Of a stretch of 64,000 bases of DNA, positions 6,111 to 33,792 are shown piece by piece. Under the pieces are notes generated by a model. The model was not told where the DNA came from. It searched no databases and saw only the letters and a list, made by a program, of their open reading frames with translations. A program made the translations under genes and the position numbers. Source of the DNA: Escherichia coli. Lineage in GTDB: Bacteria; Pseudomonadota; Gammaproteobacteria; Enterobacterales; Enterobacteriaceae. Numbering within the stretch: the first letter of the stretch is position 1; each line of letters starts with the position of its first letter. Where the stretch lies: assembly GCF_003790525.1 (NCBI RefSeq), contig NZ_CP033635.1; one strand, written 5' to 3'.

Positions 6111-8006
<1,896 letters not shown>

Positions 8007-12374: not shown

Positions 12375-13420
12375 GTCGGATAATGAACGTCGGGCTACGC
12401 CCACTACGTGTTGGTAAGTTTTCGACACTGGTACGCCCTAAAAATCTGCTGTTGCTTGGTGGGCTGTTCCTGCTTGCGGTTGGAATACTGATATTCGGTC
12501 TGATGCAGGGTTCTTTCTCTGTTCCGGCATCGGAAGTAGGACGAGCGTTGTTTGCTCCAGAAAACGTAAGCACAGACGCACGTTATATTGTGCAGGATAT
12601 TCGCTTGCCGAGAGTCATCATGGCATTGCTATGCGGGGCCATGTTAGGTATGGCAGGGGCCGCAATGCAATCCATTGCACGTAACGGCCTTGCCGATCCT
12701 GGTTTAATCGGCGTCAAAGAAGGATGTAGCGTGGCTGTGCTGTGGCTGATTTTCCAGTTTCCAATGCTGGGAATGTTCTGGCGTCCAGTGGCTGGTCTTG
12801 CTGGTGGCCTGTTGGTGGCTTTAATCGTGATTTTTTGTGCGCGCGATATTTCCCGCCCGCGATTTGTTCTGATTGGTATTGGTGTTTCCTGGTTTTTCGC
12901 CGCCGGTATCGGTGTATTTATGACCACTGCAGATGTTCGAGATGTACAAACTGCATTGATGTGGTTATCGGGAAGCCTGCATGCAGCTAACTGGATGTTA
13001 GTCGCTATTTCAGCCTGTTGGATGTTGCCAGCCGCTCTTTTATTGCTGTTCACCGCCAGGACGGCGGATATCGCTCTGCTTGGTCATCAGGTTGCAACCG
13101 GGTTAGGGGTGAATAGTTCTCGTCTGGCGTTGTTACGTGTCGCTGCACCCATAATCCTGACAGCCGTCTGCGTTTCGTGTGTTGGTAACATCGGTTTTGT
13201 CGGATTGATAGCACCCCATATATCACGTTTTATTCTACGTGGCGGGCAGACGACATTACTGCTGGGGAGCGCGGTATCGGGGGCGTTGTTAGTTATTCTG
13301 GCGGATAGCATTGGTCGTTTGGCTTTTTTGCCTTTGCAACTGCCTGCCGGAATCATTATCTCACTGATTGGTGGACCATTTTTTTTGCTACTGCTCTGGC
13401 AGCGCAGGAACAGTTTTTAA
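12371..13420 (+). CDS. iron-siderophore ABC transporter permease (FecCD family), second subunit
   Basis: 349 aa hydrophobic ORF paralogous to the preceding permease; 4 nt overlap with it. Confidence 0.85.
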   Translation: MSRIMNVGLRPLRVGKFSTLVRPKNLLLLGGLFLLAVGILIFGLMQGSFSVPASEVGRALFAPENVSTDARYIVQDIRLPRVIMALLCGAMLGMAGAAMQSIARNGLADPGLIGVKEGCSVAVLWLIFQFPMLGMFWRPVAGLAGGLLVALIVIFCARDISRPRFVLIGIGVSWFFAAGIGVFMTTADVRDVQTALMWLSGSLHAANWMLVAISACWMLPAALLLLFTARTADIALLGHQVATGLGVNSSRLALLRVAAPIILTAVCVSCVGNIGFVGLIAPHISRFILRGGQTTLLLGSAVSGALLVILADSIGRLAFLPLQLPAGIIISLIGGPFFLLLLWQRRNSF

Positions 13421-32469: not shown

Positions 32470-32791
32470 TATGCTCTTACTCCTGGTGGCTTGTGTGTAT
32501 ACCAATTTACATAATTCACTAGACCAAAAACAGAGAGATGCATCACGCTTGCAGAGAAAGGTAAAAGTACGAAACAGAACAACAAGGCGTTATTTATATC
32601 TGTATCAATGAGTTATATGAATAAAATGAAAGGAAAGTTTTTTAGAGGTCAGTTTTTGGGATAATTGCCGCTAATCTAAGATATCTGATGATAGTCGATT
32701 TATTAGACCAATTGAAAAGAGAGCGTGTACCAGTGGAGGGCGGAAGGCAGAGCCGGCGTTATTTTTCCCGCCAGCTCTGGACTAATGAAGG

Positions 32792-33541
32792 TTAACGAGC
32801 GAAGAAAAAGTCATCAAAATCGCTGATGGAAGCGTCTTGTTTGAAGATTTTGATCAGTTCATTTTTGCTGTTTTCCAGATGTCTCCAGGATGCTTCCCTG
32901 GCGAGCTCTGAATCTTTCTGTTGTAGCGCAAGGAAAATAGCCCGGTGATCTTCCAGCCATTGCAGACGCAAATGCTTTTCATGCAGGTACTTGTAGTTAA
33001 GTTTCTTCCAGCGGGGGTTTTCTGTACGAACTGCCCGCCATAATTCAGCAGCTTGTTTGATGAGTACCCGATTTTGCGTCGCTTCGGCAATAATGCTATG
33101 AAATCGGTGATCCAGGTCTTCAAATTTATCACTTTCCGCAGCGATAGCGTTTTCCTGCAATCTAATGATTTTCTTTAACTCTTGTAACTCGTTAAAGCTA
33201 ATCTGGCTGGCTGCAAAACCAGTAATATTGCTCTCAATCACCTGACGCGCCTGCAACAGTTCAAACGGGCCAATTTCTGAATAGGGCATTAATGATTTCT
33301 GGTTGAGCTTATCGGTGGAGTCGACAAAGAAAATCCCTGACCCTTGCTTCACATTCAATACGCCTTTCAGTTCCAGCATAATGATGGCTTCACGAATGGT
33401 AGTTCGGCTGGTATTAAACCGCTCGCTCAGTTCACGTTCTGAAGGTAAGCGTTCTCCGGCCTTAAATACGCCTGAATACAGCAGCTCTTCAATCTGTAGA
33501 CCAATATCGTAATAGCGGCGCTTTGTAATAACCTGTTCCAT
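32792..33541 (-). CDS. GntR family transcriptional regulator (FadR/FCD subfamily)
   Basis: 249 aa; N-terminal winged HTH (LPSERELSERFNTSRTTIREAIIMLELKGVL) plus C-terminal FCD-like helical domain. Confidence 0.85.
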   Translation of the reverse strand: MEQVITKRRYYDIGLQIEELLYSGVFKAGERLPSERELSERFNTSRTTIREAIIMLELKGVLNVKQGSGIFFVDSTDKLNQKSLMPYSEIGPFELLQARQVIESNITGFAASQISFNELQELKKIIRLQENAIAAESDKFEDLDHRFHSIIAEATQNRVLIKQAAELWRAVRTENPRWKKLNYKYLHEKHLRLQWLEDHRAIFLALQQKDSELAREASWRHLENSKNELIKIFKQDASISDFDDFFFAR

Positions 33542-33792
33542 ACCTTGCCTTACTGTGGGTGTCCTCGGATAGCCGATCGTCGTGCAATATGATTTGAACG
33601 TTGCTGATCGGCATAAATAGTAGCGGCAGTTGCCACGATACCGCCAGCCTTAAATGTGCTTGCCCAAGTCGGGCAGTGAAAAACCTCACCAGGGTATTTC
33701 GCCACCGTTCATCAACATCACTTCATTTCCGCGCGTGATACAGCGTATAATCCCCGGCCTTTGATTATTTTTTTATCATTTCTGGAAGCAAA

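Follow-up and report, generated by a model that had tools for sequence, protein, structure and literature searches.

The operators of PdhR, LldR and FadR follow the same TTGGT half-site logic as the sites described below and repress by occluding the promoter, but their centre-to-centre spacing is different, the PdhR site, for instance, being TTGGT-N3-ACCAA. A second point of comparison is the E. coli hexuronate regulon, in which the UxuR and ExuR operators have in common a core of TTGGT-NN-ACCAA with A/T flanks. One UxuR site, AAATTGGTATACCAATTT, has been used in a fructuronate biosensor and is functional there (PMC8092373). Here, we analysed a stretch of 64,000 nucleotides of E. coli DNA (the window) that carries a GntR/FadR-subfamily regulator gene, a catabolic operon and a long gap between the two, and we predict that this gap is an operator-promoter region of an ordinary kind, belonging to a new UxuR/ExuR paralogue.

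The window locus is an accessory island in the ftsP/ygiQ interval, which is carried by 1204 of 5426 complete E. coli genomes (22%), with ExPEC and APEC strains among the carriers. A single one of the 1205 matches to the locus in the E. coli genome collection is plasmid-borne and not chromosomal. In a 2026 comparative paper the island appears as 'GR21 ygiQ..ftsP' and is known by annotation only (PMC12928451), and our literature searches returned no paper on the island regulator, its operators or its inducer. The first enzyme of the operon, a fructuronate-reductase-like member of the mannitol-dehydrogenase family, is 49% identical to K-12 UxuB, and the closest solved relatives of the TRAP binding protein are DctP-type proteins, which bind hexuronates. 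The TRAP small-permease gene dctQ (27383-27865, minus strand) has an in-frame stop at codon 29 and is annotated as a pseudogene in SMS-3-5; hence, the island transporter is probably non-functional in the window strain. Given that the regulator gene ends at 32792 and the mannitol-dehydrogenase ATG lies at 32469, the gap spans 32470-32791, and its length of 322 bp, as put forward in a preliminary description of the window, agrees with the PGAP annotation of E. coli SMS-3-5.

Close homologues of the regulator are annotated with PF00392 and PF07729, that is, a GntR winged helix-turn-helix (wHTH) and a C-terminal FCD domain of the FadR subfamily, and PGAP names the protein 'FadR/GntR family transcriptional regulator'. 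Its best NCBIfam matches are UxuR (NF007588, 192.6 bits against a cut-off of 442) and ExuR (NF008571, 184.2 bits against a cut-off of 396), and it is 38% identical to each of K-12 UxuR and ExuR. With scores so far below the cut-offs and an identity of this order, the regulator is a paralogue of UxuR/ExuR and not UxuR or ExuR itself. The recognition helix (SRTTIREAIIMLE, compared with TRTVVREALIMLE and SRTVVREAIIMLE) and the wing are nearly identical to those of UxuR/ExuR. The likeness to the hexuronate system includes the paralogous regulators with their FCD effector domain, sugar-acid catabolic targets with a mannitol-dehydrogenase-family reductase among them, and tandem sites, which upstream of K-12 uxuR are about 20 bp apart. 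In contrast to that system, the window sites keep one good half only, and the Zn-ADH, Ldh_2 and TRAP genes of the island, together with the related 3,6-anhydro-L-galactose genes, lie outside the hexuronate regulon.

A single-protein scan of genome contigs gave 4 close loci only; the more distant loci were reached through the homologous proteins of the regulator and then the contigs that encode them. Four boxes, in two pairs (a/b and c/d), stand out on the gene-sense (minus) strand when the gap is aligned across 11 sequences, which come from E. coli strains, E. albertii, E. whittamii, Klebsiella spallanzanii, Pseudocitrobacter and a metagenomic enterobacterial locus (Table 1).

Table 1. Positions of genes, boxes and other elements, in window coordinates unless a related locus is named.
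Feature	Position	Strand	Remarks
TRAP dctP	27907-28890	-	followed by dctQ (pseudogene) and dctM
Ldh_2 oxidoreductase	28963-29973	-	after Zn-ADH
Zn-ADH	29984-31000	-	second operon gene
Mannitol-dehydrogenase-family gene	30997-32469	-	fructuronate-reductase-like, first gene of the operon; ATG at 32469
RBS AGGAG	32480-32484	-	10 nt ahead of the ATG at 32469; read from the sequence
Box d TTGGTATACACA (with flank TAAATTGGTATAC)	32494-32505	-	putative main operator; overlaps the first motif of the preliminary description
Putative -10 hexamer TAAATT	32504-32509	-	inferred; overlaps box d
Box c TTGGTCTAGTGA	32516-32527	-	promoter-proximal, putative operator; missed earlier
CRP-like site CGTGA-TGCATC-TCTCT (CGTGAtgcatcTCTCT)	32532-32547	-	3 mismatches to TGTGA-N6-TCACA; 4 bp upstream of box c
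AT-rich spacer, unconstrained	32549-32699	.	poorly conserved across the gap alignment
Box b TTGGTCTAATAA	32700-32711	-	upstream, operator-like; missed earlier
Box a CTGGTACACGCT	32722-32733	-	upstream, operator-like, degenerate; overlaps the second motif of the preliminary description
Hairpin, 11-bp stem, 10-nt loop	32748-32779	-	inverted repeat 13 nt past the regulator stop
GntR/FadR-subfamily regulator (wHTH + FCD), 249 aa	32792-33541	-	ORF
Cycloisomerase-like gene	L007/L008 7791-8879; L010 7821-8906; L012 9683-10774		adjoins orthologues of the regulator and the enzyme trio

The preliminary description had picked out two GT(A)TACCA-type half-sites as candidate operators of the cluster regulator, GTGTGTATACCA (32493-32504) and GTGTACCAGTGG (32725-32736), and both are present at these positions on the plus strand. 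The phylogenetic footprint that it proposed as a check places both over boxes that are conserved in orthologous loci, which favours their being operators, but the register was wrong and the set incomplete, with two of the four boxes found (a and d) and b and c, both TAGACCAA, missed. As for the register, conservation at the first site extends toward ACCAATTTA (32498-32509) and leaves out GTGT (32493-32496), and at the A of GTATACCA E. coli strains have either A or C; the motif of the family is the palindrome TTGGT-NN-ACCAA. The first motif does lie close upstream of the RBS, ending 9 nt from AGGAG; the second, said to be next to the regulator stop, does not adjoin it but lies 56-67 nt downstream, with the hairpin in between. 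Generalised to GTRTACCA, the earlier motif has 3 matches on both strands of the 64 kb, compared with 2.17 expected, and two of these three fall in the gap, for which about 0.01 is expected. The half-site TTGGTMTA has 5 matches in the 64 kb, three of them in the gap and all three on the gene-sense strand; a fourth is within the 5' end of the regulator gene.

By comparison across loci, the boxes correspond to the UxuR/ExuR-type motif, TTGGT-NN-ACCAA with A/T-rich flanks, and are candidate operators. A 6-mer count without any prior, made on the cluster intergenic DNA of nine other loci, ranks ATTGGT/ACCAAT at the top (32 observed for ATTGGT versus 4.6 expected, P = 8e-17, present in 9/9 loci), followed by AATTGG, TTTGGT and TTGGTA, with ATCACT also among the enriched words. 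Allowing up to 2 mismatches to TTGGTNNACCAA, the 4.67 kb of intergenic DNA from these nine loci contain 36 sites, whereas shuffles give 2.25 and the rest of the same loci 0.65 sites per kb, a 12- to 16-fold enrichment. The consensus of the position weight matrix (PWM), AAAATTGGTATACCAATTTT, agrees with the published UxuR site, and the PWM gives the sites upstream of K-12 uxuA, uxuR and exuR 16-19 bits; its training sites had been chosen for their resemblance to the consensus, a bias that the 6-mer test mitigates but does not remove. In the more distant orthologous loci many sites are full palindromes (TTGGTTAACCAA, TTGGTATACCAA and TTGGTCAACCAA, for example), and the first two of these have the N2 spacing, unlike the sites of the PdhR/LldR/FadR type, a distinction that the half-sites of the window cannot make. 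The best PWM match in the window (CTGATTGGTGGACCATTTTT, 13364-13383, 15.1 bits) falls within a 349-aa ORF, in its 3' end, and is probably due to chance.

Within the window the boxes keep mainly the left TTGGT half and none is a good palindrome, while positional homologues elsewhere are full palindromes, such as AAATTGGTTAACCAAAA in locus L014 and ACTGGTATACCAAT in L006. Taken alone, the window gives P of about 0.009 under a full-palindrome criterion, and with up to 3 mismatches allowed the gap shows no excess of sites over shuffled sequence (P = 0.13); statistical support from the window is weak, and the case therefore rests on comparison. Box d has 2 mismatches and a PWM score of 13.05, the third best in the 64 kb, and its AAATTGGTATAC (32497-32508) is identical to the 12 nt with which the published UxuR site begins. 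Box c has 3 mismatches and scores 6.2, and it is found at the equivalent position in L007, L009 and L010. The runs TAAATTGGT of box d (32501-32509) and TTTTGGTCT of box c (32521-32529) are invariant in 11/11 sequences, including Klebsiella, Pseudocitrobacter and the metagenomic enterobacterial locus, and the gap has no other long invariant run, although the invariance of box c could in part reflect constraint from a promoter or CRP contacts and not repressor binding. The start-to-start spacing of c and d is exactly 22 bp in every locus; that of a and b is 20-22 bp across loci and 22 bp in the window.

Box b, with 2 mismatches and 10.9 bits, is about the sixth best match in the 64 kb, and its AATTGGTCTA is kept in Escherichia and Klebsiella. 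Box a is the weakest of the four in the window strain (4 mismatches to TTGGTNNACCAA, PWM -2.7), and its counterparts are near-perfect palindromes, TTGGTACACCAT in E. whittamii and CTGGTATACCAA (21.3 bits) in Pseudocitrobacter. Where E. coli strains differ within the boxes, the change is in the right halves or in the central dinucleotide (A/C in box d), and TTGGT is never affected. Box d reads GGTATAC in the window strain, clone D i2 and ST80 and GGTCTAC in ATCC 11775, DFK.1, Z1323 and SCPM, and clone D i2 and ST80 have TAATGA in place of TAGTGA in box c.

The CRP-like site, box c and box d form the only block of the gap that aligns with distant loci, and their order and spacing are unchanged in L006, L007, L009, L010 and L014. 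Within the window alone the CRP-like site is a match of chance frequency; across relatives, 7/7 lineages have such a site, with 1-3 mismatches, at a distance of 3-5 bp on the upstream side of box c, and the relatives have 1-2 mismatches (TGTGACTTCAATCACT in Klebsiella, TGTGATCATATTCACG in Salmonella). The enriched 6-mer ATCACT also speaks for this site. A hexamer with A2/T6 abuts the TGGT of box d in all lineages. If TAAATT is the -10 element, the centre of the CRP-like site (32539/32540) would fall at about -42.5, transcription would start near 32496-32498 and the 5' UTR would be about 28 nt long. A consensus scan detected no sigma-70 promoter in the gap, and the promoter model hence rests on comparative positions only. 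As in class II CRP-dependent promoters, the arrangement combines a CRP-like site about 42 bp upstream of the predicted start with a poor -35 and with operators over the core; unlike in those promoters, the window site has 3 mismatches and draws its support from positional conservation. A second promoter downstream of box b was considered, as TATCAT (32688-32693) has the same offset from box b as TAAATT has from box c, and was rejected: the segment is deleted in E. coli SCPM and in E. albertii.

We put the probability at roughly 0.7 that the gap is the control region of the operon, in which the island repressor binds UxuR/ExuR-type sites, occludes a CRP-dependent promoter and is released by an inducer. 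Repressor dimers would sit on boxes c and d, 22 bp apart and on the same face of the DNA, with box c covering the -35/spacer region and box d the -10/+1 region of a promoter with a weak -35 that depends on a CRP site centred near -42. Bound repressor would exclude RNA polymerase until a sugar-acid inducer, at the metal site of the FCD domain, releases it, so that expression of the operon would need inducer and cAMP-CRP together. The a/b pair, 184 bp upstream and past the U-less hairpin, would be an ancestral operator that is partly degenerate in E. coli and may contribute to cooperative repression or stop transcripts of the regulator gene from reading through. Strict helical phasing of the two pairs, as in a repression loop, is not supported: the inter-pair distance varies across loci (133, 161, 170, 173, 184 and 243 bp, with 184 bp in the window), and not by whole helical turns.

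Another account of the upstream half of the gap starts from related loci that have an additional gene. In the E. coli gyrB-yidB island (L007/L008), in Budvicia (L010) and in Agarivorans (L012), a divergent enolase-superfamily gene lies between the regulator and the operon, with 667 bits to the 3,6-anhydro-L-galactonate cycloisomerase of Vibrio sp. EJY3 (PDB 5xd7). The length of the gap and the a/b pair may accordingly be the relic of a divergent control region left after loss of this cycloisomerase gene, with a/b now functionless, which is possible although we lean against it. Related loci have the gene exactly at the position of the gap, together with a box pair of its own that is 21 bp apart. 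Salmonella Kentucky has a broken cycloisomerase pseudogene (L009 7880-8500) in a 1.2-kb gap between the regulator and mannitol-dehydrogenase genes, with tblastn matches to residues 10-136 and 267-361, and this resembles a transitional state on the way to the gene loss in the window. The relic account is also favoured by L014, which is likewise without the cycloisomerase and retains an inverted copy of box c upstream, by the degeneration of box a in the window strain and by a spacer that tolerates indels and a REP insertion. However, tblastn found no coding trace of the cycloisomerase in the window gap, and the repeat that relates box b to box c (D1) is direct and not inverted; given these two points, a divergent origin is only moderately supported.

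The loss of function that the relic account also assumes has to be set against the retention of the upstream site. An upstream-half motif match is retained in 7/7 lineages, with best scores of 21.3 bits in Pseudocitrobacter, 18.8 in L014, 14.7 in Klebsiella, 14.0 in E. whittamii and 10.9 in the window, and the scores are above the shuffled expectation in all but E. coli SCPM (8.5 bits, P = 0.15). At least one above-chance upstream site thus persists in nearly every cycloisomerase-less lineage despite surroundings that cannot be aligned, which suggests continuing selection. The upstream operator-like site is thus ancestral and probably still under selection, and weakened in E. coli.

A further question is which protein uses the boxes. 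They may be bound also, or mainly, by the core-genome repressors UxuR and/or ExuR of the host, which would make the island part of the hexuronate regulon, and conversely the island regulator may act at the uxu/exu operators. Several observations point this way: the PWM consensus of the island family equals the UxuR site, the K-12 uxuA, uxuR and exuR sites score higher than the window boxes (6-13 bits), the recognition helices are nearly identical and the first enzyme resembles UxuB. However, the boxes co-occur with the regulator gene in every lineage, including the Vibrio and Agarivorans loci, which points to the cognate regulator as the primary binder, and boxes with only one half-site may be too weak for non-cognate paralogues. 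We consider host-repressor binding rather unlikely, and cross-binding by UxuR/ExuR would in any case be compatible with promoter occlusion by the island repressor.

A gap of 322 bp with a stable hairpin at its 5' end and small ORFs of 33-46 aa could also contain an RNA element, such as an sRNA, a riboswitch or a leader-peptide attenuator, in place of or beside protein sites. The hairpin has a fold centroid of -19.2 kcal/mol and is kept within Escherichia only. It is followed by CCUUCCGCCC without a U-tract and is not called by a terminator scan, and was therefore rejected as an intrinsic terminator; it is possibly a 3'-end or terminator-like structure. Deletions have shortened the spacer by 24 bp in E. 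coli SCPM and by 10 bp in E. albertii, and in E. whittamii a REP/BIME-like insertion is found in the middle of the gap (L002, approximately 6880-7040), so the spacer between the box pairs is unconstrained. An RNA element is very improbable and was rejected, given that the region 32350-32900 has no Rfam 15 match at E <=1, the central 150 bp are unconserved and take up these deletions and the REP insertion, the small ORFs are not kept across the indels and the predicted 5' UTR is short.

It is hardly credible that the motifs are GT..AC matches which arose by chance in an AT-rich spacer, and that the gap has no specific operator: each window box is an imperfect palindrome and 3 mismatches give no enrichment, but the boxes are invariant across genera while their flanks diverge, which excludes a chance origin, and the fixed 22-bp phasing, the motif enrichment in orthologous intergenic DNA and the 6-mer result also speak against it.

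The preliminary description also expected that the operators would help to identify the inducer. By themselves they do not, and the lead is instead the gene content of related regulons. In Agarivorans, the motif flanks an aldehyde dehydrogenase gene, the regulator gene, an MFS transporter gene, a kinase-aldolase-cycloisomerase operon and a mannitol-dehydrogenase/Zn-ADH operon, and the window enzymes are 60-73% identical to their Agarivorans counterparts. Because the related regulons are linked to the cycloisomerase, an intermediate of the 3,6-anhydro-L-galactonate cycloisomerase pathway is a reasonable candidate for the inducer. According to a 2024 review, the fate in bacteria of the cycloisomerase product, 2-keto-3-deoxy-L-galactonate (L-KDGal), is unknown (PMC11219438). 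Since the cycloisomerase gene adjoins orthologues of the regulator and of the mannitol-dehydrogenase/Zn-ADH/Ldh_2 trio, the trio is a candidate for the bacterial L-KDGal pathway, and the link to the cycloisomerase clusters suggests candidate enzymes for the bacterial fate of L-KDGal.

A more far-reaching combination would make the island the E. coli outpost of the 3,6-anhydro-L-galactose regulon of marine agar degraders, with the trio as the route from L-KDGal to KDG and with sites shared with UxuR/ExuR. As a whole this is unlikely. If true, the regulator would sense an intermediate in the breakdown of this red-algal sugar, such as 3,6-anhydro-L-galactonate or L-KDGal, and bacteria would convert L-KDGal to KDG by way of the conserved mannitol dehydrogenase, Zn-ADH and Ldh_2. 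With an operator code identical to that of UxuR/ExuR, sites would then be shared by three paralogous repressors in island carriers, which make up 22% of the complete genomes of E. coli, and the island would be tied to hexuronate control. The connection of the island with red-algal sugar catabolism is a more interesting lead than the gap itself. The map of predicted operators and promoter nevertheless offers a direct handle on the inducer and substrate of the island, and it allows cross-talk between an accessory repressor and the core UxuR/ExuR regulon to be tested.

Autoregulation through a box upstream of the regulator gene was rejected, as there is no PWM match in 33542-33792; the only box is intragenic (33489-33508). 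This box, GATATTGGTCTACAGATTGA, lies on the minus strand at codons 12-18 of the regulator gene and is the second-best match to the operator PWM in the 64 kb. Its synonymous positions, a CTA Leu codon among them, are the same in Klebsiella and Pseudocitrobacter, whereas the codons around it have changed, and it may be an autoregulatory site. It is absent from the more distant loci; two of these, L009 and L010, have a box ahead of the regulator gene in its place. Upstream of the regulator gene in the window, the GGCTGGCGGTATCGTGGCAACTGCCGCTACTATTTATGCC block (33600-33650, minus strand), with no operator box within it, is kept in Escherichia and partly in Klebsiella and is presumably the regulator's own promoter, with TACTAT as the -10.
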